Origin: an uncultured virus (IMG/VR IMGVR_UViG_3300042514_001512)
Lineage: Duplodnaviria; Heunggongvirae; Uroviricota; Caudoviricetes
Virus record (IMG/VR): IMGVR_UViG_3300042514_001512
DNA length: 56,912 nt
Direction: 5' to 3' (one strand)
Part shown: one piece after another, positions 5,538 through 37,474 of the stretch
Numbering within the stretch: the first letter of the stretch is position 1
Layout of the letters: the number at the start of each line of letters is the position of its first letter
Program-made: the position numbers and the translations under genes
The notes under the pieces: generated by a model
The model's input: the letters and a program-made list of their open reading frames with translations, nothing else
Told to the model about the DNA's origin: nothing
Databases searched by the model: none

Positions 5538-6442
5538 GTGTTGGAACATACGGAACAATAAGGCCAGCGGATGTCTCTCCCGAAGATGTAGAGATAATTT
5601 TGAATTTTACCCCATCAAGGGATGAAACGGATAATTTTATCTTAACTAAGTTAAATGCGACATCAATCTTAAGACCATACTTTAATAACAATGATACTGG
5701 TGGTAACCCTAATATTGAAATATTGGGTGGTTTATATAATTTAAGGTTACCTTCAGACCAATTTAATAAAATTGGTATCTATACCTTAATGGTTAGACCG
5801 GCCCAAATAAGAACAAGAATACTTGATTGTGGTGTTCTATCGGCATTACCAAATGTTAAAGGGTTAGTTATTGATTTAAATGACGTGCCAACTCAGTTTA
5901 GAAATAAATTTGTTAATCAAGGATTGGTTGGTTTTAGAATTGAATATTTAAATTCTGACGGAACTAAAGTACCTAATTTTTTTAGATTAATAACTTCATC
6001 ATTTTTTTGTGAACCAGTTGTTCAAAACTTAACTAATACTTCTCAAAAAGCTATTAGATATAGGTATACTGATAATAATACAAATTTAATTTTTTGTACT
6101 GTTTCACCATCATCATCACCTACTAATAAGCCAAATGCAACACCGTATATTGGGCAACCTGACCAAGATATCATTATTACAAATACTTTCTTTAATCCAA
6201 TAACATTGGATATTGAAATTGCTGAACACGATTTCTCAACATTGGCAATTGCATTGTTTGGTAATCAAACTAAGTCTATGGATGATGGTATCTACACATT
6301 ATACGATACTCAAAATAACATATACAGACAATACAATTTATATGAAATTAGAGACCAATTTAATGAATTACTTTATGAGGTTAGACAAGATAGGGGAAAT
6401 AATATTGACTTCAGTAAAAACTTTACAAATATAACGCAATAA
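5534..6442 (+). CDS. Putative baseplate structural protein
   Basis: 302 aa; stop overlaps the next start (TAATG); lies next to the wedge-like gene. Confidence 0.55.
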   Translation: MSVGTYGTIRPADVSPEDVEIILNFTPSRDETDNFILTKLNATSILRPYFNNNDTGGNPNIEILGGLYNLRLPSDQFNKIGIYTLMVRPAQIRTRILDCGVLSALPNVKGLVIDLNDVPTQFRNKFVNQGLVGFRIEYLNSDGTKVPNFFRLITSSFFCEPVVQNLTNTSQKAIRYRYTDNNTNLIFCTVSPSSSPTNKPNATPYIGQPDQDIIITNTFFNPITLDIEIAEHDFSTLAIALFGNQTKSMDDGIYTLYDTQNNIYRQYNLYEIRDQFNELLYEVRQDRGNNIDFSKNFTNITQ

Positions 6443-9400
6443 TGGCCGTTACAAAATATACTTGCCCACCTCAGTCCGCTTCAGGAGCTGGTACCTTTTC
6501 CGATAATTTAGTTGGTTTCCAATTAGTTACTGGCGGAGGTTTAACGCAAGGAAATTTTGAATTTGTTAGTTCTATTAATGAAAAAACAAATAGAACCTTT
6601 AATACGGGTAACTTCTCAGACCCTATCAGTTTAGATAGTATGGGTGTTAGTGGTGTGGTACAATCTAAATCTATTTTTGAAAATAACTTTAAGGTTTATC
6701 CTAATTTTGACATGAGTCAAATTACCAACTTCACATTATATGGGTCGATGGTTAAACGTATTTCAGTTTCGGTTGAAACCATTATTAGTAAGTTCCCTGC
6801 AGCATTAGAATCAACATTCATGGGGACTAACTATGTGACAGGTGCGACCGCAACTAACATTTTGTTTAATTCGGTTTACGATGAGACCGTTTTTGATTTG
6901 GACGTTTCAAAATTAAGAAATCCATTTGATATTGACTTTTCGGTTAACTCAACAAGAAATTTAGAATTAAAAGAAATTAGTGTATCTCCATTAAGAGATA
7001 TGACAATCCAATATGCTAAGTATTCTTTATACGTTAATGGGGTTGGATATGATGTTAAATCTTTAACACCAACAACCAATACTTCTAGTGGAGTATTACA
7101 AATATCCGTTAGTGGAAACCCTTTTTCAGGACAAAGTATTGTATATTATAGTTTTGTTATTCGGCCTAACGACTATGAGGTTACTAAAATATTTAATGAA
7201 GATTTAGATGAAGTTGAAAATTTCTTATTAAATAGAAGTGTGACACCAATTTATACCGCAACATTTCAAGTACCAAGAGAATCTGAAGATGGAACATATT
7301 ACACCTCAAATCAACCAATTACATGGCCATTGTATGGTGAGTGGAATATTGATATTATAACCAAATCATTTGAAAATTATTTAATACAATTAAATGAGGT
7401 TAGTGAGTATTTTGACATTTATACAACAAATTTAGTCTCAAGATTTTTAATTACAGGTTCATTTAAAGAATTTGATACTGTAACTCAAAAAATGGAAAAA
7501 GTTCTACAAATTTATGGTAGAAGTTTTGATGAAACTAAAAAATTCATAGACGCTTTAGCATTTATGACTTCGGTTAATTATAATGTTGGTAATGATATAC
7601 CGTCACAATTATTAAAAAATTTAGCACAAACATTAGGATGGGGAATTAACATTTCACCAATAACCGAGGATGATTTTTTAGGTTCTGTGTTTGGTCAAAA
7701 AAATAAAGACAATTCACAATTTACTGGAACGTCACAAAAACAAACACCCGATGAATTAAATTATCAGTATTACAGAAATTTAGTATTAAATTCCGCTTAC
7801 TTATTTAAATCTAAAGGAACAAGAAAATCAATTGAAGTTTTAATGAGATTGGTTGGTGCTCCTGAAGCCTTAGTTGAATTTAATGAATATGTTTATGTTG
7901 CTGACCAAAAAATTAATTTAGAACAGTTTGAAACACAATTCTATAATATTTCTGGTGGGACATACATTCAAGAATTACCGACTTACGAACAAGGTAATAC
8001 CTTTAACATTATGGGAGTTACCTATACAGGTTTTACAACTCAAACAACAATTCAGGATGTTAATATTAACCGAGGAGAATACCCTATGGATTTTTATGGA
8101 TATCCACAAGCACCTATCGACACTGAAAATTACTTTTTTCAGATAGGTAGCGGTTGGTTTGAACAAACACCAAAACACAGAGCTCCTGAACAAGTTGATT
8201 TAAATAATAGTGTATTCACAGGTTCTAACCCTAATTATCAAACAACTTTAATACCTTATTCATACGGTCAAGAATATCTTAATCGATTTAGGGACTTTCC
8301 ATTTATGACATTAGGTTATAATTTGAGTGCAGTTCCTGATAATAATAAAAGTTGGACTGATAATGAAGTTGGAATAAGAAGTAATTTAGATGGAGGGATT
8401 AATGCTCGTTATTTTGCCGATGATGAAAGATTAGTATTAAATGTTAAAAATGTTGATTTATTTTTGAATCCTGCTCAAGGTATAGTATATGACGTATGGT
8501 ACATGTCTAGACAATATAATTACCCAATCCCAAATCAAGGTTTAAATTATGTAGCACCAACTTATTGTAACCCACACCCAAATATCAAGTATCCACAAAG
8601 AGGTGGTGTGGATTGGACTGAAATCAACCCACAACCAAAAAGAAAAACATTCTTTGAGTTTGCTCAAACATTTTGGCAAAATACTATCAATGTTAGAAAT
8701 AGACAATATGCCACAGATGGTAAAACAAGTGGTTATCCAACTTTATCTTCTATTTTTTGGAAGTATTTAGAGTCTCAACAGACAATAAATATACCTAACG
8801 ATAATTTCACATATCAAACAATGATTGACTACGTGAATGGTATGGGAGATTATTGGATTAGACTTGTTGAACAAATGATTCCTGCAACAACTATTTGGAA
8901 CACTGGTGTTAAGTATGAAAATTCAATATTTCATAGACAAAAATTTGTTTGGAGAAGACAAGAGTGTTGTAAATTTATACCAGTACCATGTAAACCATGT
9001 TCATTAACCTCAAACATATATCGATATGATTGTAATATACAATCAGTTGAATGTGGTGTGTATCCTTGGTATGGAAGTTCTACTATTAATAGTTTTAATG
9101 CGGTTTTAGGTCAAGCACTTAATAACTATCTTACTGCTAATGGTTATACCTTAAATAACTGTTTATTAAATACTTTAACAACTAATTGGTTTGTAGAAAT
9201 AAAAATTAATGACTCAACTGTTATTCAATACCCATTTTTTGATGGAATTGGTTATACAAATATAAGTTTAAGCTCACCACAACCAAATGATTGGGATTCC
9301 GCATTATTAATAGCGTTAAATGATTTAACAATTTACGGATATGACTATTATTTAACAACTACCGATACTGTAGTTATTTATAATTCAATTTGCTCCACTT

Positions 9401-9462
9401 CAGCCTTTGGTGATAACTTTAAACTAAATGTTGGAATAAACTTTAATATTTTATGTAATTAA
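6442..9462 (+). CDS. Baseplate wedge-like protein (P2 gpI / T4 gp7-like motif)
   Basis: LLKNLAQTLGW...YLFKSKGTRKSIEVLMRLVG matches the KGT motif of contractile-tail baseplate wedge proteins; later IPATTI motif. Confidence 0.65.
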   Translation: MAVTKYTCPPQSASGAGTFSDNLVGFQLVTGGGLTQGNFEFVSSINEKTNRTFNTGNFSDPISLDSMGVSGVVQSKSIFENNFKVYPNFDMSQITNFTLYGSMVKRISVSVETIISKFPAALESTFMGTNYVTGATATNILFNSVYDETVFDLDVSKLRNPFDIDFSVNSTRNLELKEISVSPLRDMTIQYAKYSLYVNGVGYDVKSLTPTTNTSSGVLQISVSGNPFSGQSIVYYSFVIRPNDYEVTKIFNEDLDEVENFLLNRSVTPIYTATFQVPRESEDGTYYTSNQPITWPLYGEWNIDIITKSFENYLIQLNEVSEYFDIYTTNLVSRFLITGSFKEFDTVTQKMEKVLQIYGRSFDETKKFIDALAFMTSVNYNVGNDIPSQLLKNLAQTLGWGINISPITEDDFLGSVFGQKNKDNSQFTGTSQKQTPDELNYQYYRNLVLNSAYLFKSKGTRKSIEVLMRLVGAPEALVEFNEYVYVADQKINLEQFETQFYNISGGTYIQELPTYEQGNTFNIMGVTYTGFTTQTTIQDVNINRGEYPMDFYGYPQAPIDTENYFFQIGSGWFEQTPKHRAPEQVDLNNSVFTGSNPNYQTTLIPYSYGQEYLNRFRDFPFMTLGYNLSAVPDNNKSWTDNEVGIRSNLDGGINARYFADDERLVLNVKNVDLFLNPAQGIVYDVWYMSRQYNYPIPNQGLNYVAPTYCNPHPNIKYPQRGGVDWTEINPQPKRKTFFEFAQTFWQNTINVRNRQYATDGKTSGYPTLSSIFWKYLESQQTINIPNDNFTYQTMIDYVNGMGDYWIRLVEQMIPATTIWNTGVKYENSIFHRQKFVWRRQECCKFIPVPCKPCSLTSNIYRYDCNIQSVECGVYPWYGSSTINSFNAVLGQALNNYLTANGYTLNNCLLNTLTTNWFVEIKINDSTVIQYPFFDGIGYTNISLSSPQPNDWDSALLIALNDLTIYGYDYYLTTTDTVVIYNSICSTSAFGDNFKLNVGINFNILCN

Positions 9463-12400
9463 TGTCTTGTACTTTATTATACACCTCAGCCATAACTGGT
9501 GATTGTTCAAATACTAATGTTGGAGCATTTAATATAAATATTAATGGTAGTGCTCCTGATTATTCAATTCAGTGGATTAATCCATCTTCTTTAGGAACTA
9601 TAGCGTTAGGTGCTGGTATTACACAATATGAGGTTACATCATTATCTGCGGGGACTTACACATTTAATATTATTGATTCATGTATACCAACATTAACGGT
9701 TGTCCCCGTAAATGTATATATATCAAGTGGAACGTGTGTAAGTATTGATTCTCATACTAATGCTACTTGTGGTCAAAATAACGGTAGCCTTACCGCATCA
9801 ACCCAAAATCTTTATGGTATAAGTCAATTCTACCTTTACGATACAATTAATGGTTATATTACGTCGGCGTCATCAGTAACAAATACTTTTGCATTTGATA
9901 ATATGTTAAGTCCTGGGATTTATTATGTTATAGGTGATGACGGTGGTGGATGTTCAGGTAAGTCAGAAACATGTATTGTTCAAAGTGCGGAAACATTTGA
10001 CTACGGATTTTATGTTGTTAATGATGCGGGGTGTGCAGTAAATTCAGGTAAAATATTTATTACAGGATTGACAGGTACACCACCATACACTTATTTATGG
10101 TCAAACGGAGAAACAAACTCATCAATTAGCGGTTTAAGTGCCTCGACTTACGGTGTTATTGTTACTGATGGTAATGGATGTACTATTTCTAAATCGGTAA
10201 CGGTATTACAAGTGCCATTAGTTGGGTTAGGGGCTTTTACCTCAATTAGCCCAACTTGTTTTGCGTCTAACGGAGAAATTACGGTTACGGTAACAGGTGG
10301 AACCGCGCCATATTATTTTTCAGGTTCAAATGGGACTGTTTATATTACATTTGACCAAACTTATACTTTTACAAATTTAGCTTCAGGTGTTTTTACAGTA
10401 CAAGTGACGGATGCTGGTTTATGTAATTTTGTTGCAAGTACAACATTATTACCTCCAGGAGGATTTAGTATTGTTGGTATTGGTGTTAATAATTCAAACT
10501 GTAACAATAACGGGGGGTCTTTAAACCCAATTCAATTATTTGGTGGTAGTGGTAATTACACTTATGATTTACAATATCCTGATGGAAATAATTTGGTTCA
10601 AAGTACAACAAATCAAAATTGGCAATTTACGGGACTTTCAGGTGGTACCTATAATTTAACAATTAGTGATGGTGTCTGTACCTTTACCAGTGCTTATACT
10701 ATCAATAATACAGTTCAATTTAATTTGACGACAACAAGTACAGGAACAACTTGTAGTTTTACTAATGGGGCTATTAACTTAGAAATTTCAGGTAGTACAG
10801 GGCCTTATACTTACTCAATAAATGGGTCAAGTTTGGTTTCGCCTTTAAGTGCATATACATTTAGTAATCTGGCCTCAGGAACATATACTGCTAGTGTTAC
10901 AGACTTTAGTGGGTGTCAACAAACTAATTCTGTGTTAGTTGCTCCATCCTCAAATCCTAATTTTATATTAAATGCGACAAATACAGTAAATGGTTCTGAT
11001 GGTACTATCACCGCATACATAACTAATGGTGTACCACCATTTACTTTAAATTGGAGTAGTAACGTAAATGGACAAACAGGGTATACGATTAATAGTTTAT
11101 CCGCTGGCACGTATTCACTTACAGTTATAGATTTTAATGGGTGTTCTACAATATCAAGTGTTATTATTACAGGTACAAATAGTGTATCATCCTATCAGAC
11201 ATATACAATATGTGATACTGATTTTATCAATTCACCAAATGCGATTAAAACCGGTCCTAAACAAATGTTAAATGAAGGTTTTTATGATTTAACAATTAAT
11301 GATATAAATTGTGTTTTAAATGAGGCAATTTTTGAAGCGATTGTGAGTGTTAGTGGTAATGTTTTAACTCAACAATTTTATGCTGGTACAACATTAAACG
11401 AATATCCTGCAGATAATCAATTTTATGACACAATTACGGGGTTATTATTACAATTTGATGGTATTGCAAGTGTGGATATTAATCCCCTAACAAATACTAT
11501 TCAAATTTTAACTGATTGTGAATCTTTAGTTTCTTTATCGGACGCTCAAGTTATTATTAACATGAAAATATATTATGATATCTCGTGCGTTAGTTGTCCT
11601 AGTCCTAGTCCAACACCAACATTAACACCAACACCAACTAACACTCCGACACCAACAGTCACACTTGGGTTAACTCCAACACCAACAAATACTTCAACTC
11701 CAGCAAATACGCCAACACCTACACCAACAAAAACACCAACTCCAACACCTTTACCGATAATACCAATATGTTCTGTATTAATTAATAATGGTGTTGACGT
11801 ATCCGCCTATTTTCCATCATCAAATACTAACGTATTTTTAGGTAATTCTTTTCCATCATCACCAGATATTGCACATACAACAACTAAACTATGGATGTAT
11901 GATGGGTCGATAATTAAAGAATATAACATAACATTAAACCCTTGGTCAAAAACTTTCAACAGAAACATTGCATACCCTTCAGGTGTTTCTTTAGGGTTTG
12001 GTTTAGGGGCCATTAGCAACTCTCTGTTAATCTCAACAAACGTTTCAGTATCTCCTAATCAAATAATTACTTTAGATATTAACACAAGTACCGCAGTTTC
12101 AACTGTAATTGGAACACTAGGGGTTGGTAGGACTGTTTCGGGTGATATTTTATTAACAACTACAAATAAAATATTAGTTACTAATCAATCTACTACTGGT
12201 CCTTTTACATCTACATATCTAACCCAATATAGTTATCCGTCAGGTGCTTTTGAAGTTGAGGTCGATATTACGTCAACCATACCTTTTCCGTATGGTATAT
12301 TTATCGATAGTAGTAAAATATATGTTTGTAACAGTGGTGGTCAAATATATAAGGTTAATGTTAACTTCCCATACGCACAAACATTATTTAATAACTCAGG

Positions 12401-12755
12401 ATTAACCATTTTAGGAGCGTCTCAAGTACCAAGTTGTTGTAATACTAACCTAAACTTACCTATAACATCCTATACTTGGTTTACTAATCTTGATACCTAC
12501 ACATCATCTGATATTACTCCCTGTATAGCCACTGGTTGTGGGGCAAATTTATACACAGCAACATCGACAATAGCTCCTGGAATTGTAATATATCAGGATA
12601 ATGCTTTAACAATACCATTTGTTGGCACTAATTATGGTCTTTCAGGTGGTGGATGGGGTAGATTGTTTTTATCAGATGATTGCCCAATAACTGGATTGAG
12701 AAATGTTGCACAAGTAAATGGTTCAGGACAAGTTCTAAGTAATTATACATGTTAA
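9462..12755 (+). CDS. Tail fibre/adhesin-like protein: SprB-like repeats, Pro/Thr stalk, probable beta-propeller tip
   Basis: Repeated GGTxPYxYxWSNG and LSAGTYxxxVTDxxGC (SprB-like); PT-rich linker at about 11596-11760; propeller-like blades (DIAHTTTKLWMY, SGDILLTTTNKILV, PYGIFIDSSKIYV). Confidence 0.7.
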   Translation: MSCTLLYTSAITGDCSNTNVGAFNININGSAPDYSIQWINPSSLGTIALGAGITQYEVTSLSAGTYTFNIIDSCIPTLTVVPVNVYISSGTCVSIDSHTNATCGQNNGSLTASTQNLYGISQFYLYDTINGYITSASSVTNTFAFDNMLSPGIYYVIGDDGGGCSGKSETCIVQSAETFDYGFYVVNDAGCAVNSGKIFITGLTGTPPYTYLWSNGETNSSISGLSASTYGVIVTDGNGCTISKSVTVLQVPLVGLGAFTSISPTCFASNGEITVTVTGGTAPYYFSGSNGTVYITFDQTYTFTNLASGVFTVQVTDAGLCNFVASTTLLPPGGFSIVGIGVNNSNCNNNGGSLNPIQLFGGSGNYTYDLQYPDGNNLVQSTTNQNWQFTGLSGGTYNLTISDGVCTFTSAYTINNTVQFNLTTTSTGTTCSFTNGAINLEISGSTGPYTYSINGSSLVSPLSAYTFSNLASGTYTASVTDFSGCQQTNSVLVAPSSNPNFILNATNTVNGSDGTITAYITNGVPPFTLNWSSNVNGQTGYTINSLSAGTYSLTVIDFNGCSTISSVIITGTNSVSSYQTYTICDTDFINSPNAIKTGPKQMLNEGFYDLTINDINCVLNEAIFEAIVSVSGNVLTQQFYAGTTLNEYPADNQFYDTITGLLLQFDGIASVDINPLTNTIQILTDCESLVSLSDAQVIINMKIYYDISCVSCPSPSPTPTLTPTPTNTPTPTVTLGLTPTPTNTSTPANTPTPTPTKTPTPTPLPIIPICSVLINNGVDVSAYFPSSNTNVFLGNSFPSSPDIAHTTTKLWMYDGSIIKEYNITLNPWSKTFNRNIAYPSGVSLGFGLGAISNSLLISTNVSVSPNQIITLDINTSTAVSTVIGTLGVGRTVSGDILLTTTNKILVTNQSTTGPFTSTYLTQYSYPSGAFEVEVDITSTIPFPYGIFIDSSKIYVCNSGGQIYKVNVNFPYAQTLFNNSGLTILGASQVPSCCNTNLNLPITSYTWFTNLDTYTSSDITPCIATGCGANLYTATSTIAPGIVIYQDNALTIPFVGTNYGLSGGGWGRLFLSDDCPITGLRNVAQVNGSGQVLSNYTC

Positions 12756-12786
12756 TATATGACAAACTCAATTAGTTTACTGGTAA

Positions 12787-12963
12787 TTAATCAATTGGGT
12801 TTTTTTTACCTAAACCACCATAAAGTCTCATAAGTTTTAGAGATTCATGATAGTTTTTTTCTAATCTGTCTAGTTCTTTTTCAGGGACACCTTTTTCACA
12901 GGCAACCTCATACGCATCTTTAGATTCAGAAACCAATTTTGATATTGTTTTTAGTAGTTTCAT
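12787..12963 (-). CDS. 58-aa late protein missing from the ORF track
   Basis: MKLLKTISKLVSESKDAYEVACEKGVPEKELDRLEKNYHESLKLMRLYGGLGKKNPID*; TATTTATA motif 4 nt upstream on the minus strand. Confidence 0.65.
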   Translation of the reverse strand: MKLLKTISKLVSESKDAYEVACEKGVPEKELDRLEKNYHESLKLMRLYGGLGKKNPID

Positions 12964-13034
12964 ATAGTATAAATATCTACCAAAACACCATTTATTAAGA
13001 TGGATGATTAATTATATTTATTTTAAAACATAAA

Positions 13035-14012
13035 ATGGATAAAAATTTAAGATTTGTATGTGCCCAACCTGATGTACCATATTTTTATTGGCAAGTTAGG
13101 GTGTACGTTGAAAATTTTATAGAAAAAGGTATTTTACCAAACCAAATACATGTTATTTTTGGTATAGTAACACCAAATACTGAACCAACTTCAGATTCGT
13201 TAAAATTAAAAGAATTGGGAATTAATATCCATCATTATTTAGATAACAGAGAACAAAAACATTATATTCCAAATATTAAGCCATTTTTAATTCATAAATG
13301 GTTAAAGGAATTCCCTCAACACGGAGAATGTTTTTTCTTACATGATGCTGATATAATTTTTAGAGAATTACCTGATTTTAAAACATTAATGGAGGATGAT
13401 GTTTTATATCTTTCAGATACTGTTGGTTATATTGGGTTTAATTACATTATGGATTGTTGTAAAAGATATGAATCTCATCACCCACAATCTAAACAAGGTC
13501 AATTACTACAAGAAATGGTTGATGTTATTGGTGTTACGACCGAATGTGTTGAATGTAATGAAAATAATTCAGGCGGTGGTCAATATTTGATTAAAAAAAC
13601 AGATTGGATGATTTGGGAAAAAATCTATATGGATTGTACGCCACTATATGACCAAATGATGGATTACCAAAAACGTTTCCCAATAAACCAAGGTGAAATA
13701 CAATTTTGGACTGCAGAAATGTGGTCTTTATTATGGAACTTATGGTATTTTGGAAAAGAAACTAAAGTAGTTAAAGATTTAGATTTTTCATGGGCAACCG
13801 ACTCAATTTCTATTTACGAACAAAGACCAATACTTCATATGGCGGGAGTAACTTCAGATATGAAAACAATTAAATTTTATAAAGGTGATTTTATTAATGT
13901 TAATCCATTAATTAAGTTAACAGAAAATTTTGAATATTTTGATTATGTTGAAGAACATAGTTCTACAAAAAAATATATAGATGTTATGAAATCTATAGTA
14001 AAAAAACAATAA
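13035..14012 (+). CDS. GT-A glycosyltransferase resembling plant protein O-glycosyltransferases (GT96 SERGT1 / GT95 HPAT-like)
   Basis: Ordered motifs PYFYWQ, YIPNIKPFLIHKWL, LHDADIIFR (DxD), GGGQYLI, WTAEMW, ILH parallel SERGT1-type YFDWQ, NKPxxxxHWL, LDADMI, WxxEMY. Confidence 0.6.
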   Translation: MDKNLRFVCAQPDVPYFYWQVRVYVENFIEKGILPNQIHVIFGIVTPNTEPTSDSLKLKELGINIHHYLDNREQKHYIPNIKPFLIHKWLKEFPQHGECFFLHDADIIFRELPDFKTLMEDDVLYLSDTVGYIGFNYIMDCCKRYESHHPQSKQGQLLQEMVDVIGVTTECVECNENNSGGGQYLIKKTDWMIWEKIYMDCTPLYDQMMDYQKRFPINQGEIQFWTAEMWSLLWNLWYFGKETKVVKDLDFSWATDSISIYEQRPILHMAGVTSDMKTIKFYKGDFINVNPLIKLTENFEYFDYVEEHSSTKKYIDVMKSIVKKQ

Positions 14013-14017
14013 TCTGA

Positions 14018-14036
14018 TTATTTATAGTATAAATAA
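14018..14036 (+). promoter_or_regulatory. Putative late promoter TATTTATA inside a perfect inverted repeat
   Basis: TTATTTATA-G-TATAAATAA, 2 nt before ATG 14039. Confidence 0.55.
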
Positions 14037-14038
14037 CA

Positions 14039-15442
14039 ATGACTAACACGACATCTTTACTTCAACAAAAAAACGAATGTGATGTAATTACAATATTTCC
14101 AATGACCGTTGAGTGTTTAGTTAACAATCCGTCATCACAAAATGCGACTGATGGTAGCTTATCTATTTCTATAACAGGAGGAACACCACCATACATAGTT
14201 GCTTGGAGTAATGGTAATATATCTCCGGCAATTAATAATTTAGGTGCTGGTAGTTATACAGCAATAGTTACTGACTATTCTTGGTCAGGGAGTGGTCCTG
14301 ATTATACGGCAACTACAACATGTGTGTTAACCGCACCTATAATACCTGTAACACCAACACCTACACCAACGGTTGTGCCTGTATTACTCTATGATATTTG
14401 TTTAACAGTGTATATACAACCAAGTAATTATCAAATGCACTTTAATCCTAATGGTATATATAATGGTATATATAGTAGTGGTTATCAATCATGGATATCA
14501 GATGACTCAGTATACCAAATTGTTTGGGCTACAATAGACAATCGATGGAGGGTAATTCCGAACACAACAAACCCTGGTGGTGGAAGTGTTTATATGTTAC
14601 AATCACCATCACCATATCCGCCTTTAACGGGATGGTATGTAATTGGAGCATTAGGAACTGTTGTGTCAAATCAAGGTCTTTGTGTGCCGTTACCAAGTAA
14701 CCCGTCATTTACATATTCACTTACTCAACCGACTTGTACATGTGATGGTAATATAATTATAACGGCTTCTAATGGAACACCACCATATCAGTACTCAGTT
14801 GATAATGGAGTGACATTCACTAGTAATTCAGGGCTCTTCACAGGAAAATGTCCTGGAACTTATAGTTTACAAATTAAGGATTCGTTAAATAATTTAAGTA
14901 CTGTTTCTACGGCTACCTTAAATAATTTTATTGGAACAACAACATATACTCTTAGTTTGTCACCGACAGTTATTGTAACTGTAAACAATAACACAACTTT
15001 AACAAGACAATTTACTGCTACCGTAAATGTTTCACCACCAATCCCTGTTGGAACAACAATTACGTTTGATGCACAACACATAAATCAGTTTGGTAGAGGG
15101 CCTGCCCCAACTGATGCGACTATTGTGACTAATAGTGTTTTAACTAAAAATTCAACAGTAATACCAATAACTTCAAGCCCGTCATCAAGTAATACTACAA
15201 CACAAATAGGTGCCGGTTGTCAATCGGCGGCATTAAATAATACAGGTCAAATTGATAACTGGGTTTCGGTGTCAATGACAAATGGTGATACCATGGTTAT
15301 TAATACCACAACAACTATGACTAAAATACAACCAGTACCTAATTGTTTCTTCGCAGAATTCGGTGACACATTTTTTGCGGTAAATGGGGTTATTAATGGA
15401 TGTAGTTGTTGTAGGTTAATTATGCCAAGTAAAGCGGTATAA
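14039..15442 (+). CDS. SprB-repeat virion/fibre protein
   Basis: GGTPPYIVAWSNG...LGAGSYTAIVTD and GTPPYQYSVDNG...PGTYSLQIKD repeats; short PTPTPT linker; Cys-rich. Confidence 0.6.
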   Translation: MTNTTSLLQQKNECDVITIFPMTVECLVNNPSSQNATDGSLSISITGGTPPYIVAWSNGNISPAINNLGAGSYTAIVTDYSWSGSGPDYTATTTCVLTAPIIPVTPTPTPTVVPVLLYDICLTVYIQPSNYQMHFNPNGIYNGIYSSGYQSWISDDSVYQIVWATIDNRWRVIPNTTNPGGGSVYMLQSPSPYPPLTGWYVIGALGTVVSNQGLCVPLPSNPSFTYSLTQPTCTCDGNIIITASNGTPPYQYSVDNGVTFTSNSGLFTGKCPGTYSLQIKDSLNNLSTVSTATLNNFIGTTTYTLSLSPTVIVTVNNNTTLTRQFTATVNVSPPIPVGTTITFDAQHINQFGRGPAPTDATIVTNSVLTKNSTVIPITSSPSSSNTTTQIGAGCQSAALNNTGQIDNWVSVSMTNGDTMVINTTTTMTKIQPVPNCFFAEFGDTFFAVNGVINGCSCCRLIMPSKAV

Positions 15443-15460
15443 TAAAATAAAAATTAAGGA

Positions 15461-15468
15461 TATTTATA
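15461..15468 (+). promoter_or_regulatory. Putative late promoter TATTTATA
   Basis: 3 nt upstream of the structural gene ATG; the motif recurs before many virion-like genes. Confidence 0.6.
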
Positions 15469-15471
15469 AAC

Positions 15472-17904
15472 ATGACTTATATATTAAAAAATACCTCGGG
15501 ATTAATTAATACTAGATTAACAGACACTGGAAGACAAAAATTATCTCAAGGCAACTTTAACATCGAGTATTTTCAAATTGGTGACGGAGAAGTTTCATAT
15601 AACTCTTTACCAAGTTCATACAATCAAGCTAATACAAACATATTTGAACCTAATTTTAATTCACAAAATTCAGCACCAACACAATCAAATAAACAATATG
15701 TAAAATATCCTTATTATGTTGATGGTGTAACAGGTAATACTTATGGTATTCCGTATTCAGACCCTGTAGTTTCTCCGGTATATAACCGAGCGGCAATGAG
15801 AGGATTTTTTACGGCAGACCTTAGTGCTACAACAATTAATTGGAGCGCAATTACAAATAGTTCTCATGTTATTAATTCTAATTATGTTGTTGATATGTCA
15901 GAATTAACCGGCGGTACCACTATTATGTTAATTTATTCAGGTTGTAACACCAATATTGTTAGAATGCCTGCTATAGGTGATTTATTAACAATCTATTATG
16001 ATGGTAATGGTGAACACAATTGTGCCTGTAGTACTTACCCAACGCCAAGCCCAACACCTTCACCAACCCCAACTCCAACCCCATCATATGACCCTTGTAT
16101 CTTACCACCAACACCAACTCCGTCACCAACATTTTGTCCAATAACACCGACACCAAATTGTGACCCTGTTGTGGAACCAGAATGTCTTATGGATATGAGT
16201 AGTTGTTACCCAATGATGACCTATAAAATTGTCGATATTTGTTTAGGTGTTTACACATTAGATAGGCCAACACCTAATTTTTCAGGAAGTTCAAATGTTT
16301 GTTATGCGAGAACTATCGTATATCCGCCAAATATGACATCACTTTATGATACACTAACACCATGTAAACATTGGAATGAGGATGTTATTAATTTTGAGTC
16401 TGTTTGTTATACAGATGAGTTTGATGTTAAAATTTGGAATATGAATATTCCATGGTCGGAAAATCCTGCGGGGTTAATTCCGACAATAAATGAAGGATTT
16501 GCGGATTTTGGTTCAGCGACATATATCGGGTCAAAAGAATATTTGGGTTATATGTCGAATAGTGGGCAGACTGACAGCAGTTCAGTATACTACTACAACT
16601 CTTTCGATGAAAAAGTTACTGTACAACCAAAAGACCAAAAATCTATCGCCATTATTCACTATACAAATCAAAGTATTGATTTCTTTTATGGTGAAAAATT
16701 TGCATTAGAACCTTATGACCCTACGGCACCCGCTAATACTATTGGGCAAGCAAGAAACTTTAGACTACATATTCCATGGCTTATGTGGCATAAAAATCCT
16801 GAATGTTGTTTAGGTGAAACTTTTTGGGTTGACCCTCCAGGGTATGACGGATTAAATTTATTTCAAGTACAATACTTGAAATCTACTAAGAATGCGGATA
16901 TGAATAACCCTGGTATGAGATACTACCAATTATGGGATACTAATACAAATGATGACGGGTTCCCAAGTAGAGTTGGTAAAGTTTTTCCTGACCAAAAAAT
17001 TATAGTGATTGATGATGAAGAGATTATTGCTGCTATGTCTTATAAATCAAATCGTAATTGGACTCTACCTTCACCAAAACTTACTTTAGTTGCTCCAAAT
17101 ACATGTGGTACTAATAATACTTCATATATTGGTGTGTTAACAGGTGATACTGAGTATATGTATGTAACTTATAGAATTAGTAATACGATTAATTTTACTA
17201 ATTCATTACATTGTAACTATTATACTAGAATACAAGGTCCAAATTTAACTTGTGTACCAAGTGCGTCGCAAAACGTATCAATTAGGTTTGGTCCGGAGTT
17301 TGGTTGTTTAAATCAACCAGATTATACACCAACAACTACAACAACTACAACTACAACAACATTATGTCCATCTGTTTGTTATACGCCACAAGGATTTTAC
17401 GGTGATAAATTTGAAATTATATGTCAAAAAGTTATTGGTGATATTAGACCTGATTCGTCCGAGTGGAAAATAATCGATGTAACATCACAATTAAGTGCAA
17501 CAACCGTTGGAGGGTATATTACTCAAAACGGTATAACAGGTAATACATTTACTATTACTCAAGATGATTATGATAATGCGCCTTATTACGATTTAAATAC
17601 CTATATACCTCTAACCCCTGTTGGAAGCACTACACCATCTTTAAATTTTGGGGACGAATATTATTTCTACGGTTCATTAGAAACGGATATTCAAGCTACA
17701 ATATATGAGATGAGGTATAAAATTAATTTAGGTGTTGCGGAATTTCAGGCAACTTCAAACCCAACATGGACTCAAGGGACTGACTCATATATAACTGATA
17801 TTGGTCTTTACGATTCTGATAAGAATCTTATGATTATATCAAAGATGCAATCACCTGTTTTAAGACAAGGGATTCAACAGTTCCTGGTTAAATTTGATTT
17901 CTAA
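15472..17904 (+). CDS. Baseplate/tail-fibre attachment (collar-like) protein
   Basis: N-terminal LTDTGRQKL and C-terminal ITDIGLYDSDKNLMIISK resemble tail-collar/fibre attachment motifs; internal SPTP and poly-Thr tracts. Confidence 0.55.
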   Translation: MTYILKNTSGLINTRLTDTGRQKLSQGNFNIEYFQIGDGEVSYNSLPSSYNQANTNIFEPNFNSQNSAPTQSNKQYVKYPYYVDGVTGNTYGIPYSDPVVSPVYNRAAMRGFFTADLSATTINWSAITNSSHVINSNYVVDMSELTGGTTIMLIYSGCNTNIVRMPAIGDLLTIYYDGNGEHNCACSTYPTPSPTPSPTPTPTPSYDPCILPPTPTPSPTFCPITPTPNCDPVVEPECLMDMSSCYPMMTYKIVDICLGVYTLDRPTPNFSGSSNVCYARTIVYPPNMTSLYDTLTPCKHWNEDVINFESVCYTDEFDVKIWNMNIPWSENPAGLIPTINEGFADFGSATYIGSKEYLGYMSNSGQTDSSSVYYYNSFDEKVTVQPKDQKSIAIIHYTNQSIDFFYGEKFALEPYDPTAPANTIGQARNFRLHIPWLMWHKNPECCLGETFWVDPPGYDGLNLFQVQYLKSTKNADMNNPGMRYYQLWDTNTNDDGFPSRVGKVFPDQKIIVIDDEEIIAAMSYKSNRNWTLPSPKLTLVAPNTCGTNNTSYIGVLTGDTEYMYVTYRISNTINFTNSLHCNYYTRIQGPNLTCVPSASQNVSIRFGPEFGCLNQPDYTPTTTTTTTTTTLCPSVCYTPQGFYGDKFEIICQKVIGDIRPDSSEWKIIDVTSQLSATTVGGYITQNGITGNTFTITQDDYDNAPYYDLNTYIPLTPVGSTTPSLNFGDEYYFYGSLETDIQATIYEMRYKINLGVAEFQATSNPTWTQGTDSYITDIGLYDSDKNLMIISKMQSPVLRQGIQQFLVKFDF

Positions 17905-17950
17905 TTTTAGGGTTGGATATAATCACTAAAACTTTTTTATAGAACAAAAA

Positions 17951-18553
17951 ATGATTAGAAATAAATTAAAAGAAAGTCCAAAAGTATTAGGTCTTGATGT
18001 ATCAACTCGAACAATCGGTGTTGCATTATTTGATATACAAAGTAGAGAATTATTAGAATTAACTCACGTATCGCCAGTTCCAAAACCAAAAGAAGAGTCT
18101 AAAATTAAAGAATTATTACTTAAGAGTGATATTTTTAGAAATAAGTTAATTGAATATAAAGACTTAGGTATTGTTAAGGTTATTATTGAAGAACCATTAT
18201 TAAATTCTAATAATGTTTATACTATTAGTATTTTATTAAGATATAATACCTTAATTACTAAAGAAATTTATGATGTTTTAGGTATTGTACCTGAATTTAT
18301 ATCCACCTATAATTCACGTAAGTTCGCTTACCCTGAATTAGTTAGAGAAAACAACAAAAATAAGTTTGTTTTATTTGGGGGATTCCCAAAAGACTGTGAT
18401 AAAAAACAAATTATATGGGAACAAGTCGCAAAAAGGGAACCACAAATACAGTGGTTATATACTCGAAACAATACATTAAAGAAAGAGAACTTTGACCAAA
18501 CAGATGCCTATACTTGTGTGTTAGGGTATATGAGACAAGAAAAACTTTGGTAA
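17951..18553 (+). CDS. RuvC-like Holliday junction resolvase
   Basis: VLGLDVSTRTIG, IIEE and C-terminal DQTDA give the acidic RNase H-fold catalytic pattern. Confidence 0.75.
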   Translation: MIRNKLKESPKVLGLDVSTRTIGVALFDIQSRELLELTHVSPVPKPKEESKIKELLLKSDIFRNKLIEYKDLGIVKVIIEEPLLNSNNVYTISILLRYNTLITKEIYDVLGIVPEFISTYNSRKFAYPELVRENNKNKFVLFGGFPKDCDKKQIIWEQVAKREPQIQWLYTRNNTLKKENFDQTDAYTCVLGYMRQEKLW

Positions 18554-18579
18554 TATCGTGTAAATAACCGATAATATAG

Positions 18580-18610
18580 AATATCGTCTTTTTAGACGAT
18601 ATTTTTTTTT
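18580..18610 (+). terminator. Intrinsic terminator between convergent genes
   Basis: AATATCGTCT-ttt-AGACGATATT followed by a T-run. Confidence 0.75.
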
Positions 18611-18636
18611 ACCTTAAAGTTTTGATTTACTCAATT

Positions 18637-21600
18637 TTATACAGTAGTTGAGGTTATTATAATTGGAACACCACAGTTTGCGGTTGTTACTGTAAAAGAA
18701 TAGTTTATTTCAAAAACTTGGTCAATAGATAATACAGAGTTGTTGTATGAACCAATACTTAATTGAGCATTAGAAATAAACGAAGTACAAAATGATGAAG
18801 GTACCATTGCCTGTAAATAAAGTGATACCACATCACCTGTTTGAACTGGAAAAGTATTTGAATAGACGCCCTGTGATAAACTAGATTGAAACGTATATAC
18901 TATAACACCATTAACTTTTATATTACCCGTTGTCCAAGAACAATAAGTTTTTGTGTGAGTGTAAGACATGGTACAAGGTTGTGGTGTTACAGTTGTGGTT
19001 GTTGTAGTTGTTGGTGTTGCCGCAGCAGAACAAGCATTACAACTAGGGTATGTTGAGAAACCAGTAAAGTAATTACCAGACCAAGTAATTACATTTGTAT
19101 TTGGGGAAAATTGTCCCGGTGAACATAAGGAAGAGCCAATAAATTTCCAACACACCCCTGTAGTAGGGTTACGTAAAACATTCCCAACAATAGTTGTTGG
19201 TGTTGCCGGTACAGTTTGAACTACGACCTGCAGGGTACTAGATGAATTGTTACTATTGTTAGTACAATCTGTAAACACATAATAAGTTAAACATGGAGTT
19301 GGAGTTACGGTTGGTGATGGTGTTGGAGGTAATCCTGATGTTACGGTAGGAGTTGGCGTTTGTGTTGGTGTTTGGGTTGGCGTATTTGTTGGTGTACTTG
19401 TTGGCGTAATAACACAGTTTAAACAATCACCTAAATTAGAAAAACCAAAAGGACCTGCAAGTAAATCCATTTGGTTAATACCTATGATATCGTTGTTTAC
19501 CCCAATATAACTCACACATTTTGACACACCATCAACAAGTGATTCAAAAACCATATATATTTCTATATCAAGACCTGGAGTTGGGTTCTCAAGGACACTT
19601 GTTGTATAATACATACTACCATTAAAACAGTCTTGGAATTGTTTACTTGATGGACATTTAATTAAGTCATTAACAGTATTAAATGTTACGTTTCCTAAAA
19701 AGTCACACGGTCTGTCAATTGCGGGTGTAGGTGTTGGTGTGGTTGTTACTGTAGGTGTTGGTGTTGGTGTAATAGAACTAATCGTTGCATCAACACTAAC
19801 ATTTGAACATACATTTATTGGTGTCTGAGTAGGTGTCTGAGTAGGTGTTGGTGTCTGAGTAGGCGTTGGTGTTGGTGTAGGAGTATAGTCACAATCAAAT
19901 AATGCGGTAAAGTCAACATCACACGGTAATGTAGGCGTTGGCGTTGGTGTAGGACAAATACCTGCAAGTAAATTGTCGTCACATAAATCAGGACAAATAC
20001 TATAACAAGGTGATTTACCTGATAATAAACAAATACCACCTAAACTGGTCGATAAACACCATTGAGTGTTTGTTGTGTCATAATAAATAAATAATGAATT
20101 TAATGTACCAACCCAATAAAAATTAATACCATAAGCACCAACTCTTACGTAGTTATCGTTCCATAAGGCATTACCAGTATCATATAAACAATAGTTTATC
20201 ACCGTACAAAAACCTACAGGTATTGATGTTTCAGTTGGTGTTGGTGTTGGTGTTTCAGTTGGAGTAGGGGTATTTGTTGGTGTTTGGGTTGGAGTTTCGG
20301 TTGGTGTTGGTGTTTCAGTTGGGGTTTGTGTCAACCCATTTGTTGGTGTATTTGTTGGCGTTTCAGTTGGTGTTGGAGTGTTAGTTGGTGTTTGGGTTGG
20401 AGTTTCAGTTGGAGTATTTGTTGGAGTATTTGTTGGAGTATTTGTTGGTGTTTCAGTTGGTGTTGGTGTTGGTGTTTCATTTGGAGTTGGAGTATTTGTT
20501 GGGGTTGGAGTATTCGTTGGTGTTTCAGTTGGCGTATTTGTTGGTGTTTCAGTATTTGTTGGAGTATTTGTTGGTGTTTCAGTTGGTGTTGGAGTGTTAG
20601 TTGGTGTTTGGGTTGGAGTTTCAGTTGGAGTATTTGTTGGAGTATTTGTTGGAGTATTTGTTGGTGTTTCAGTTGGCGTTGGTGTAACTGTTGGTGTTGT
20701 AGTATTTGTTGGAGTATTTGTTGGTGTAGGTGTATTTGTTGGAGTTTCAGTTGGTGTATTTGTTGGTGTTACAGTATTTGTTGGGGTAACTGTTGATGTA
20801 GGTGTGTTTGTTGGGGTATTTGTTGGGGTATTAGTCGGCGTTTGAGTCGGCGTTTGAGTCGGAGTATTTGTTGGAGTTACAGTATTTGTTGGAGTATTAG
20901 TTACAGTATTTGTTGGAGTATTTGTTGGAGTATTTGTTGGAGTATTTGTTGGTGTTTCAGTTGGAGTATTTGTTGGAGTTACAGTGTTTGTTGGAGTATT
21001 AGTTGGCGTAGATGTTGGAGTTTCAGTTGGGCTTGGTGTAGGAGTATTTGTTGGAGTTATTGTATTTGTTGGTGTTACAGTATTAGTTGGAGTATTAGTT
21101 GGAGTATTAGTCGGTGTATTAGTTGGTGTATTTGTTGGAGTTACAGTATTAGTTGGCGTTATTGTATTTGTTGGTGTTGAAGTATTTGTTGGAGTATTAG
21201 TTGGAGTTGTTGTTGGTGTTGGTGGAGGATTTGTTGAGGTAAGAGTTGGGGTGGGTGTTGGAGTTTCAGTTGGACTTGGTGTAGGAGTATTTGTTGGAGT
21301 TACAGTATTTGTTGGTGTTGGTGTATTTGATGGTGTTGAAGTATTTGTTGGTGTTATTGTATTTGTTGGTGTTGATGTATTTGTTGGCGTTATTGTATTT
21401 GTTGGTGTTACAGTATTAGTTGGAGTATTAGTCGGCGTATTAGTCGGCGTATTAGTTGGAGTATTAGTTGGAGTTGGAGTTGGTGTTGGGGTTTGGGTTG
21501 GAGTGTTAGTTGGAGTTGGAGTTGGGGTAGGTGTTGGGCTAAGTGGTGGTGTACAATACCAACTTGGAGCATTACACATGTTTAGAGTAACAGTTACAGT

Positions 21601-22122
21601 TGAATAAGTTGCGTTAGTTTTAACGTCATTAACATAATAATATGGAGTTGGGTTTAGTATAGAAACGCACATGCTGTATATACCATTCACCTCAAATGGG
21701 TATGATAAAGTTTCTCCAATCTGACAATCATACATGTCAACAAATATTACTAAGTCAATTGAAGGGTCAGTATTACCTGTGGCACTATTTAAGTCCTTAT
21801 TATCAATATAAATGTCAACACACGTACAATTTGGTAATGGTATAATATCGGGACTATCACATTTTCCAGTATGGTCGACCATACAAGCGGCACAACCACC
21901 TCCAGGTGTATACTCAAAATAGGTGTTAACACTATTATAGTTAGTTTCAACACCTGTCGCTCTGGCCTCCCAGCATATATCATTTGTATCATAATAAAAG
22001 TTACCTACAATAAACTCTGAGTCCGCAACTGCATCAATTGTTGGTGTACATGGCCTAATAATTATTGAAGTGTCATAACAACATCTTAAAAATACTGTAT
22101 TACATTCTGGTTGTTGCGGCAT
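18637..22122 (-). CDS. Mucin/extensin-like Cys-rich putative virion surface protein
   Basis: 1161 aa; Cys-rich globular segments separated by PT-rich tracts, including one of about 440 aa ([12 protein letters not shown]); upstream TATTTATA motif. Confidence 0.7.
20228..21540 (-). repeat. Coding tandem-repeat tract (12/18-bp units) encoding the Pro/Thr stalk
   Basis: Units such as GTATTTGTTGGA and GTTTCAGTTGGT on the + strand, with a near-identical ~100-bp block at 20361 and 20577. Confidence 0.9.
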
Positions 22123-26589: not shown

Positions 26590-27471
26590 TTGGAAAATTA
26601 TTTAGAGGTGGGTCAAACACCACTTATCCCTATTGATATTGATGGAGTTATTATTTGGGGTAAGGCAGAATTTATGAACCCATCAGGTTCTGTTAAAGAC
26701 AGACCAATCAAAAACATTTTAACACGAGCGGTAGAGAATGGTTTATTATCCAAAGGAGGTACCGTTGTTGAAGCAACTAGTGGAAACGCAGGTATTTCAT
26801 TTGCAATGTATTGTGCTGAAATGGGGTTTAAATGTGTTATCGTAATGCCATCTAACATGAGTGAAGAACGTAAAAAAATGTTACGTCTTTATGGTGCGGA
26901 ACTTATTGAAGTTGGACCTGGTGATTTTGATTCTGCAATTAAATTAAGAGATGAATTGGCAGAAAAAAATGGATGGTTTAATGGAAATCAATTTGCATCG
27001 CCTTGGAATGTAGAGGCTCATAAAGAGGGAACAGGTGTTGAACTAATGTATCAGGCAATTAGTAATAAAATTAGACCATCAGCATTTGTATTAGGAACTG
27101 GCACTGGTGGAACACTAATGGGGGCGGGAGAAACACTTAAAAATTTTTATTATGATATGGAAATTGTTGCGGTTGAACCATCAGAGTCACCAGTAATGAG
27201 TGGAGGAGAATCAGGATTACATGGGATTCAGGGAATTGGTGATGGTTCTAAGTTTATGGTTGATTTAGATTTTGTTGACCACATAATTACAATATCAACA
27301 GAAGAGGCGACTCAAATGAGCCGTAGATTATCTAAAGATTATGGAATCTTTGTTGGAATTTCTGCGGGAGCAAACGTTTTGGCTTCAGTTAAATACGGAC
27401 AAAAGTTTGATAAGACAAACATTTTTACTATACTTTGTGATAGAGGAGACCGATACCTTTCAATATTATGA
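26590..27471 (+). CDS. cysK: Cysteine synthase (O-acetylserine sulfhydrylase, CysK/CysM family); TTG start
   Basis: GQTPL, NPSGSVKDR (PLP lysine), EATSGNAG, NQF, GTGTGGT, HGIQGIG, GISAGAN, CDRGDRY. Confidence 0.9.
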   Translation: MENYLEVGQTPLIPIDIDGVIIWGKAEFMNPSGSVKDRPIKNILTRAVENGLLSKGGTVVEATSGNAGISFAMYCAEMGFKCVIVMPSNMSEERKKMLRLYGAELIEVGPGDFDSAIKLRDELAEKNGWFNGNQFASPWNVEAHKEGTGVELMYQAISNKIRPSAFVLGTGTGGTLMGAGETLKNFYYDMEIVAVEPSESPVMSGGESGLHGIQGIGDGSKFMVDLDFVDHIITISTEEATQMSRRLSKDYGIFVGISAGANVLASVKYGQKFDKTNIFTILCDRGDRYLSIL

Positions 27472-33327: not shown

Positions 33328-33618
33328 ATGAAAGCAATTTTAAATTTTATTGACACTTGGGGAGTTAGAATCATTACATTATTAATATTAATTATCTTTT
33401 TTAAAACTTGTTCGACTAATGGAAAAGTTGAAAAAGTTCAAAAAAGTGTAGTGGAGACTAACATTAAAATAGATTCATTATCACTTGAATTACAAAAACA
33501 AATTAAGATTGAAGGTCTTAAATCTGAAAAAAGAATGATTCAATCTACTGATAGAAAAATTATGGATGTTAACAGACAGACAGAAATTGATAAAGAAATA
33601 TCTCAATTTGATAAATGA
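33328..33618 (+). CDS. Membrane-anchored coiled-coil protein (possible lysis/spanin component)
   Basis: N-terminal TM helix, FFKTC, coiled coil; upstream of the amidase-like gene. Confidence 0.5.
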   Translation: MKAILNFIDTWGVRIITLLILIIFFKTCSTNGKVEKVQKSVVETNIKIDSLSLELQKQIKIEGLKSEKRMIQSTDRKIMDVNRQTEIDKEISQFDK

Positions 33619-37437: not shown

Positions 37438-37452
37438 ACTGAAATATTTAGA

Positions 37453-37460
37453 TATTTATA
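37453..37460 (+). promoter_or_regulatory. Putative late promoter TATTTATA
   Basis: ATATTTATATTAAAAACA context, identical to the one at 43542. Confidence 0.6.
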
Positions 37461-37474
37461 TTAAAAACAAGAAA

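Follow-up and report, generated by a model that had tools for sequence, protein, structure and literature searches.

A GT-A-type glycosyltransferase of tailed phages that co-occurs with poly-threonine runs and probably O-glycosylates the phages' own virion proteins

The window analysed here is a whole 56,912-nucleotide stretch of DNA from an uncultured virus of the Caudoviricetes (IMG/VR record IMGVR_UViG_3300042514_001512), and its gene of interest, at 13035..14012 on the plus strand, encodes a predicted GT-A glycosyltransferase of 325 amino acids (aa) from the family phrog_4417, with a DxD motif (D104/D106), H268 and K283. A first-pass annotation had described this enzyme as plant-type and had assigned to it, as substrates, four neighbouring proteins with Pro/Thr(Ser) (PT) tracts, three of which do carry such tracts. 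An SprB-repeat protein of 1097 aa (9462..12755, plus strand; PF13573, E 2.2e-19) has a 53-aa PT tract at 11598-11756 (aa 713-765) and no pure Thr run. A conserved clade protein of 810 aa (15472..17904, plus strand), situated in a tail/baseplate block, combines a Pro/Thr/Ser tract at 16039..16146 (aa 190-225), which does not track the enzyme, with a ten-Thr run at 17332..17361 that lies between two Cys-flanked segments and is predicted to be an acceptor tag. The third, a Cys-rich fibre-like protein of 1161 aa (18637..22122; phrog_15511, function unknown), contains a TPTN/TPTE tract of 446 aa at 20215..21552 (aa 191-636) and, near its C-terminus, a seven-Thr run at 18991..19011 as second candidate tag; it is encoded on the minus strand, past a RuvC-like gene. 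The fourth, an SprB-repeat protein of 467 aa (14039..15442, plus strand; PF13573, E 1.1e-6), has a PT stretch of only about 14 aa (14336-14377), under the tract threshold. The first-pass annotation had missed the two pure Thr runs, which turned out to be informative, and both have mixed codons (ACA/ACT in the ten-Thr run), so that neither is a simple DNA repeat.

The four motifs that had singled out this open reading frame (ORF) indeed occur in the claimed order, at residues 15, 77, 103 and 225, and are conserved in the family. A PHROG profile search places the protein in phrog_4417 (E 4.5e-67), a family listed with unknown function that comprises at least 1284 near-length homologues in 936 clusters at 50% identity. 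Searches of Pfam, NCBIfam and PDB sequences returned nothing meaningful, and no PDB chain matched by sequence. The structure model, made from 84 sequences, has a pLDDT of 97.6, and its best fold match is glycogenin (Z 14.9, rmsd 3.7, 229 aligned), followed by Gat1 (Z 14.2), UGGT (14.0), LgtC (14.0) and WbbM (13.9). All of the top 36 rows are glycosyltransferase entries, Foldseek gave a result consistent with this ranking, and none of the 50 listed matches is a DNA-modifying transferase. GT8, GT24 and GT6 structures (glycogenin, Gat1, LgtC, UGGT, ABO transferases) and the capsid glycosyltransferase of PBCV-1 (2p6w) share the fold at Z 11-15, although their identity to the phage enzyme is 5-13%, the rmsd 3.2-4.4 and the acceptors mixed. 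Throughout the 84 sequences, which extend down to about 30% identity, Y77, D104, D106, H268 and K283 are invariant and Y16, W19, Q20, P83, Q223, W225, M229 and W230 nearly so; in the model, a strand (99-102) precedes the DxD. The DxD and a C-terminal His are active-site features of GT-A enzymes, and retaining chemistry is assumed from the GT8/GT24/GT6-type fold neighbours. The catalytic domain starts at residue 6, and since the peak 19-residue hydropathy is only 1.03, the protein lacks a membrane anchor. As modelled, the product of ORF 13035-14012 is a soluble GT-A glycosyltransferase, and the fold and the conserved DxD support the enzyme class first given to it. Because the tied top folds mix protein and glycan acceptors, the fold gives the class of chemistry only: the structural comparison proposed as a check returned a glycosyltransferase fold and, with it, the lipopolysaccharide (LPS)-type enzymes LgtC and WbbM among the tied top matches. 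The elongating enzymes Gat1, LgtC, XXYLT1, LARGE1 and GlyE are likewise among the top folds.

The first-pass annotation had paired the enzyme with extensin-like PT stalks, and PT tracts do flank the enzyme gene in 77/80 close loci. These loci had been chosen by the enzyme and belong to one clade, so the pairing is not support, and it was rejected as such once a neighbour-anchored control had abolished the signal. For this control, 80 loci were fetched through the neighbouring 810-aa protein; the enzyme is present in 44 and absent from 36, and the removal of eight negatives with less than 8 kb of upstream DNA (one of which, L309, has a Thr run) left 72 usable loci with 28 negatives. All 28 enzyme-negative loci keep PT tracts, with a median length of 251 aa vs 240 aa with the enzyme and a median TPT count of 52 vs 45, and the tract of the 810-aa protein itself is found in 43/44 positive and 19/28 negative loci. 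These negatives include two complete records of 321-322 kb (G007 and G008) that contain no copy of the enzyme genome-wide (positive control 3/3). The co-occurrence check against PT-rich genes thus yielded no association. The length of the long tract at 20215..21552 differs among near-identical records, and comparable tracts are found in enzyme-less phages.

Pure Thr runs follow the enzyme closely in the same loci. A run at the site of window 17332 is present in the 810-aa protein in 39/44 enzyme-positive vs 0/28 enzyme-negative loci (28/32 vs 0/23 after removal of duplicates). At the level of the locus, runs of at least five Thr occur in 42/44 positives vs 7/28 negatives and runs of at least seven in 30/44 vs 0/28; the poly-Thr idea came from Bacillota phages, and the five-Thr threshold was set after the clade tract data had been inspected. 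The enzyme changes state five times on a 56-row tree, and in the five independent pairs the Thr run goes in the same direction in 3.9 and in the opposite direction in none (p 0.125 alone). The corresponding values for PT tracts are 1.0 same vs 1.3 opposite, on which the PT tract was rejected as a trait co-varying with the enzyme. A seven-Thr codon pattern sought genome-wide is present in 2/2 enzyme-positive and 0/3 enzyme-negative records searched. No replacement glycosyltransferase is evident in the empty slot, the ORF maps of 14 negative loci containing no enzyme-sized homologue (a family scan was not made), and GT2-family genes number 1-6 per relative in 5/5 relatives searched. At window 14336-14377 the stretch reads TPTPTPT, and a record of 99% identity (L287, 8583-9971) has seven consecutive Thr there, so the two repeat types interconvert.

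A tblastn search (E up to 10) matched 77 phage records, 76 from Bacillota-infecting, unnamed or Arcanobacterium phages and one from a Chryseobacterium phage. Sixteen of them, picked to span the lineages and in part mutually related, were opened, and 14/16 carry a run of at least five Thr, terminal or internal, on neighbouring proteins, whose annotation in most of these records is capsid, tail, protease, portal or Ig-like protein. The most divergent of the opened records, SAC12B and LP65, have PTTV and TQTQ repeats and no five-Thr run. The enzyme gene usually comes directly after a capsid, tail-tube or Ig-like gene and, in most opened records, lies within morphogenesis blocks, not in DNA-replication or lysogenic-conversion regions. 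In phiFL2A (L002:9001-9862) and phiFL1C the homologue is frameshifted (two pieces by tblastn, with a 248-aa frame) and mis-annotated, and the poly-Thr tails remain. Among bacterial genomes, 48 of the best 80 of 131 GTDB loci hold a stand-alone homologue, and 38/48 of these have a five-Thr run nearby, mostly at the C-termini of head- or tail-sized neighbours.

As Bacillota controls, relatives of four structural genes were fetched with the tail omitted from the query, and the presence of the enzyme and of the tail was scored. Counts of both present/both absent/discordant are 12/15/0 for the phiFL tail tube (27/27 loci used), 71/5/0 for the 4995_1 capsid (76/80), 36/33/0 for the PLE3 capsid (69/74, both states occurring at 94-99% identity) and 14/57/0 for the bIL285 tail tube (71/80). 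The enzyme and the poly-Thr tail therefore agree in 243/243 usable loci of 261, many of which are near-copies; the 18 others were dropped for truncation, three of them having the tail and a contig that ends at the gene. The four families show 4, 1, 3 and 1 tree changes, identical for enzyme and tail, and the two traits agree in each of six independent pairs taken on supported branches. When clade and Bacillota pairs are pooled, about ten agree and none opposes (p near 0.002 by our own arithmetic, with one pair per Bacillota family partly built in). PLE3-type capsid genes (L367-L439), 94-99% identical, end in a short Pro-Lys-Pro tail when the enzyme is absent and in poly-Thr when it is present.

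The tail/baseplate setting claimed for the window gene is borne out indirectly: in a record 97-99% identical to the window over the enzyme region (G016), a pair of baseplate-wedge genes lies 4-6 kb ahead of the point where the window starts, and it is from such context that the tract proteins of the window are presumed to be located in the virion. The model of the 810-aa protein is poor (pLDDT 48.9), with a best fold (tail tube, Z 7.3) within the range of common arrangements, and tblastn of this protein and of the 1006-aa protein encoded at 6442..9462 matched no named phage. The tail sheath offers a more distant site. In G016, the sheath (phrog_23, E 1.4e-53), encoded about 45 kb from the enzyme gene, carries three Thr runs, and a Thr/Ser insert occupies this position in the sheath of G005, a complete relative that has the enzyme; the sheaths of three enzyme-negative records contain no Thr runs. 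Among the sheath loci compared (L523-L527, L520), the four without Thr runs at this site have a domain of about 100-170 aa inserted there. Far from its enzyme gene, G005 also encodes a 281-aa protein with Thr runs (L521:3651-6480), beside 367- and 257-aa genes without PHROG match.

On this sequence evidence, we consider it probable that the enzyme O-glycosylates, in the cytoplasm, poly-Thr tags on the phage's own virion proteins. Made together with the tail genes, it would use a host nucleotide-sugar and a divalent metal and would put the first sugar on the Thr hydroxyls of exposed poly-Thr runs, before or during assembly, with sheath, baseplate-associated and fibre proteins as targets. What the analysis shows is the fold, the conserved active site, the solubility and the co-occurrence; we infer catalysis, the role of Thr as acceptor and the initiating (first-sugar) role of the enzyme. 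Enzyme and tag would form a two-part module, in which gene-bearing phages carry Thr runs at the termini or loops of capsid, tail-tube, sheath or fibre proteins and gene-less phages carry none; in the window, the tags would be the ten-Thr run of the 810-aa protein and the seven-Thr run of the 1161-aa protein. The first-pass annotation had also put forward a protein as the acceptor, Thr as a modified residue and virion proteins as the targets, and on these points, as likely ones, it is supported. The Thr residues of PT tracts could be accepted as secondary substrates, given the switch between TPTPTPT and pure Thr at one site in 99% identical records, and other phage glycosyltransferases (GT2) could extend the glycan or serve the PT stalks. 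Our guess is that the benefit lies in the protection of exposed flexible segments or in the masking of the particle surface.

Several observations weigh against this reading. The four tract proteins of the window match no structural-protein family, their matches being limited to SprB repeats and an unnamed PHROG, and the acceptor is not fixed by the fold, as the lipooligosaccharide/LPS enzymes LgtC and WbbM lie within 1 Z of the top. In the clade, two of the 44 positives (L312 and L346) have an intact-looking enzyme and no five-Thr run within 10 kb, in 5/44 the 810-aa protein is without its Thr run, and 7/28 negatives carry 5-6 Thr in a row at some place in the locus, never seven or more. Likewise, the enzyme-positive record G013 has no Thr run in its sheath, and 10/48 stand-alone GTDB homologues, four of them on contigs shorter than 6 kb, have no five-Thr run nearby. 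Independent events are few, with six supported pairs in Bacillota and about four in the clade. Taken singly, the families all stay short of p 0.05, and in each Bacillota family one pair is to some extent a product of the choice of anchors, which came from phages seen with both traits. Finally, in three families the gene lies next to the tag or almost next to it, and the two could travel as one cassette.

The last point leads to an explanation in which the enzyme modifies another target, such as a host surface glycan, LPS or DNA, and the Thr tags are no more than passengers in its cassette. It could draw on the presence of LgtC and WbbM among the tied top folds, on the adjacency of gene and tag in phiFL and 4995_1, and on the fact that phage glycosyltransferases are described as often acting on DNA or host serotype (PMC12619734). 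We nevertheless hold it very unlikely: tags lie four genes off in bIL285, 1.8-4.4 kb away inside a protein in the clade of the window and about 45 kb away in the G016 sheath, and a single prophage can carry them on as many as three different proteins, and such distant, internal or multiple tags argue against mere cassette linkage; in addition, the gene resides in morphogenesis blocks in most opened records and the 50 listed folds include no DNA-modifying one. It is harder still to credit that the protein has a GT-A fold but no catalytic activity and binds poly-Thr as an assembly chaperone or a decoration protein. While a location inside head and tail operons would suit such a protein, DxD, H268 and K283 are invariant in 84 sequences, and in phage 1706 the neighbours are labelled structural protein and the enzyme is not (annotation only).

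The remaining alternatives keep the enzyme on virion proteins. Glycosylation of long extensin-like PT stalks as its main job, the original proposal, is unlikely: the PT tracts by the gene in 77/80 close loci, the PTTV or TQTQ repeats beside the two most divergent named homologues and the TPTPTPT/pure Thr switch all fit it, but 28/28 enzyme-negative loci retain PT tracts, G007 and G008 are complete and lack the gene, Bacillota tags are mostly Pro-free, and the GT2 genes (1-6 per relative) could serve the PT tracts, if these are modified at all. Quite unlikely, too, is that the poly-Thr run is the target and the enzyme extends a host-primed sugar or transfers a non-sugar nucleotide-activated group. 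Elongating enzymes are among the top folds, and donor and linkage are unreadable from sequence; however, the small phages of Lactococcus, Lacticaseibacillus, Enterococcus, Clostridium and Staphylococcus have no annotated partner glycosyltransferase, which would require host priming shared among them, and the closest profile relatives, HPAT and SGT1, are described as initiating enzymes (PMC4908140, PMC8012813).

The label plant-type holds to the extent of a remote homology that runs through bacterial PF23452 proteins, and fails as a statement of membership. Indeed, the PF23452 (HPAT, hydroxyproline O-arabinosyltransferase) model gives no match to the window enzyme, which does not reach its cut-off, or in a scan of G005, which contains the enzyme gene; it matches two of the 84 homologues, with a best E of 0.046, and is assigned by ESM Atlas to 10% of one related cluster. 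Profile-profile alignment of the enzyme family by hhalign with 43 aligned bacterial PF23452 proteins above cut-off, a set composed without plant sequences, gave probabilities of 66-88% (E 3.5e-6 to 5.5e-5, 244-267 columns), compared with at most 2.3% for five other glycosyltransferase domain sets, all shallow (1-8 sequences each), and at most 1.04% for 20 column shuffles. Collinear motifs include YxxWQ, Y-x-P-x-(N/I)-KP, DxD, WxxxM, IxH and K. By these profile comparisons, the enzyme stands outside the HPAT domain family as a distant relative, and the kinship is real but remote.

GT95 and GT96 are described as related, initiating, membrane-bound enzymes of the secretory pathway that depend on hydroxyproline (PMC8012813, PMC4908140). 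The GT8-like fold stated also for HPATs (PMC4908140) and, as we would expect of the phage enzyme, the initiation of protein O-glycosylation link it to HPAT1-3 (GT95), but HPATs reside in the Golgi as type II membrane proteins (PMC8012813) and have hydroxyproline as acceptor, whereas the phage enzyme has no membrane anchor and Thr is its predicted acceptor. SGT1/SERGT1, of the family GT96 described as related to GT95 (PMC8012813), modifies a hydroxyl amino acid within low-complexity repeats, as predicted for the phage enzyme; it is located in the ER/Golgi and requires an adjacent hydroxyproline (PMC4908140), unlike the Thr-dominated, mostly Pro-free phage tags. GT96 enters this comparison by description, not through a sequence or model, and the absence of GT95 and GT96 structures from the fold-match lists counts neither way. 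A phage prolyl hydroxylase was considered as partner of the enzyme and found not to be linked with it: the prolyl-hydroxylase-like PF13640 is absent from three complete relatives, the enzyme-positive G005 among them, and present in G016 far from the enzyme gene. The co-varying tags are mostly Pro-free, and the phage enzyme would not need a hydroxyproline route.

Bacterial relatives provide a further context. Among 82 longer homologues scanned, 18 have Pfam matches, in 15 cases to a second glycosyltransferase domain (GT60, O-FucT, GT2, GT7C, GT6 or GT25), and GT60 and O-FucT are protein-O-glycosyltransferase domains. In the GTDB set, 30/32 fused forms lie beside markers typical of ribosomally synthesised and post-translationally modified peptides (RiPPs), as judged by BLAST with example proteins; those of Bacteroidota adjoin C39 peptide exporters, LanC-like or radical-SAM genes, and those of Acidimicrobiia and Myxococcota adjoin PqqD-domain, PF23452 and 2OG-Fe(II) oxygenase genes. 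These gene contexts point to peptide acceptors. The Bacteroidota loci (L220, L225, L246, L263, L279 and others), in which C39 exporters, LanC-like and radical-SAM/SPASM genes accompany the fused homologue, are likely glycopeptide RiPP clusters. In L219:5217-13024, L284:2-3567, L222, L228, L257 and L272, a true PF23452 gene stands together with a 2OG-Fe(II) prolyl-hydroxylase-like gene and a phrog_4417-GT60 fusion, and the Acidimicrobiia loci also encode a small protein that combines a PqqD domain with a tract rich in Thr and Pro; such Acidimicrobiia/Myxococcota clusters possibly represent a bacterial hydroxyproline-glycosylation system. PF23452-PqqD fusions form a large bacterial family.

A wider proposal, for which our confidence stops somewhat short of an even chance, is that of a portable writer-plus-tag module: one small initiating Thr-O-glycosyltransferase of the HPAT/SGT1 superfamily, acting on any protein with a short poly-Thr run, would be used by sipho- and myophages of three bacterial phyla, come and go among capsid genes that are near-identical, and stem from a prokaryotic pool with RiPP-tailoring members (Bacteroidota) or members linked to prolyl-hydroxylase-like and PF23452 genes (Acidimicrobiia, Myxococcota). 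If so, virion O-glycosylation would be common in tailed phages, and the plant extensin-type enzymes would be rooted in bacteria and phages.

Virion glycosylation in mycobacteriophages was reportedly the subject of a primary study by Freeman et al. 2023 (PMID 37329881). Che8, Corndog and Myrna are described as encoding glycosyltransferases, with glycans on the C-termini of capsid and tail-tube proteins (PMC12619734, PMC12363180, PMC12691614). In both systems a glycosyltransferase gene is linked to virion genes, and the tags predicted in Bacillota phages are at the same kind of place; the enzyme-tag system would work like mycobacteriophage virion glycosylation, with another enzyme family. At the sensitivity of tblastn the families differ, because no mycobacteriophage is among the 77 matched records. 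Moreover, the mycobacteriophage system involves several genes and measured glycans in Mycobacterium, in contrast to a single gene and a recognisable poly-Thr tag, known here from sequence alone, in phages of Bacillota and Bacteroidota and one Arcanobacterium record. Moraphages are aquatic jumbo phages predicted on Bacteroidota that encode glutamine synthetase, DnaJ, a sigma factor and a contractile tail, and they have four core putative glycosyltransferase orthogroups, for which the parts of the source covered name neither acceptor nor Thr tag (PMC12619734). The window encodes glutamine synthetase, DnaJ, sigma-70, primase and SbcCD and its relatives measure 318-322 kb, a resemblance of gene content alone, and the moraphage orthogroups might include the enzyme family.

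The literature searched, with subscription papers largely outside it, describes neither the enzyme family nor any poly-Thr tag of phage proteins, a table entry being the sole trace of the family's annotation label, and reports self-glycosylation of tailed-phage particles for mycobacteriophages only. The analysis adds that PT tracts in the clade of the window do not follow the enzyme, and it adds the sheath tag and the RiPP-type context. Members of the family are found in cultured dairy, probiotic, enterococcal, staphylococcal, clostridial and Chryseobacterium phages, so that the claim is testable on existing lysates, with enzyme-negative twins at 94-99% capsid identity as natural controls. If it is true, an unannotated phage family would gain a function, and glycosylated virions could be predicted by a sequence rule, the presence of the gene together with poly-Thr. 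It would also supply a factor in how hosts and immune systems see phages, a possible enzyme for tag-based glyco-engineering and a prokaryotic branch of the GT95/GT96 superfamily.

As for the remaining features of the window, a promoter-like TATTTAT motif at 13015..13021 (plus strand) precedes the enzyme gene and also lies ahead of 14039, 15472 and 18637. It precedes 10/60 window ORFs vs 3.1 expected (maximum of 9 in 1000 shuffles) and is near 20/79 close homologues of the enzyme; it does not, however, delimit the tail module, being missing before 5534, 6442 and 9462 and present before five genes outside. At 14019-14035 the motif is followed by its reverse complement, which forms a short palindrome and which we take to resemble the T4 late promoter. 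The 1006-aa conserved protein (6442..9462, plus strand), a context gene without tract, gives an ESM Atlas score of 0.80 to a PF23786 cluster, below the reliable range of the tool, and its baseplate-wedge likeness is a lead only. The RuvC-like gene (17951-18553; phrog_159, E 2e-4) follows the 810-aa gene in 18/18 clade loci mapped. Outside the tail block, a six-Thr run at 34407 belongs to a 283-aa protein (ORF 33615-34466) encoded just before an amidase gene. Finally, the window contains host-like genes for a PLP-dependent, cysteine-synthase-like protein (26590-27471), an EF-hand/dockerin-like protein (37406-39022), a full DnaJ (41435-42358) and a glutamine synthetase (52957-54150).

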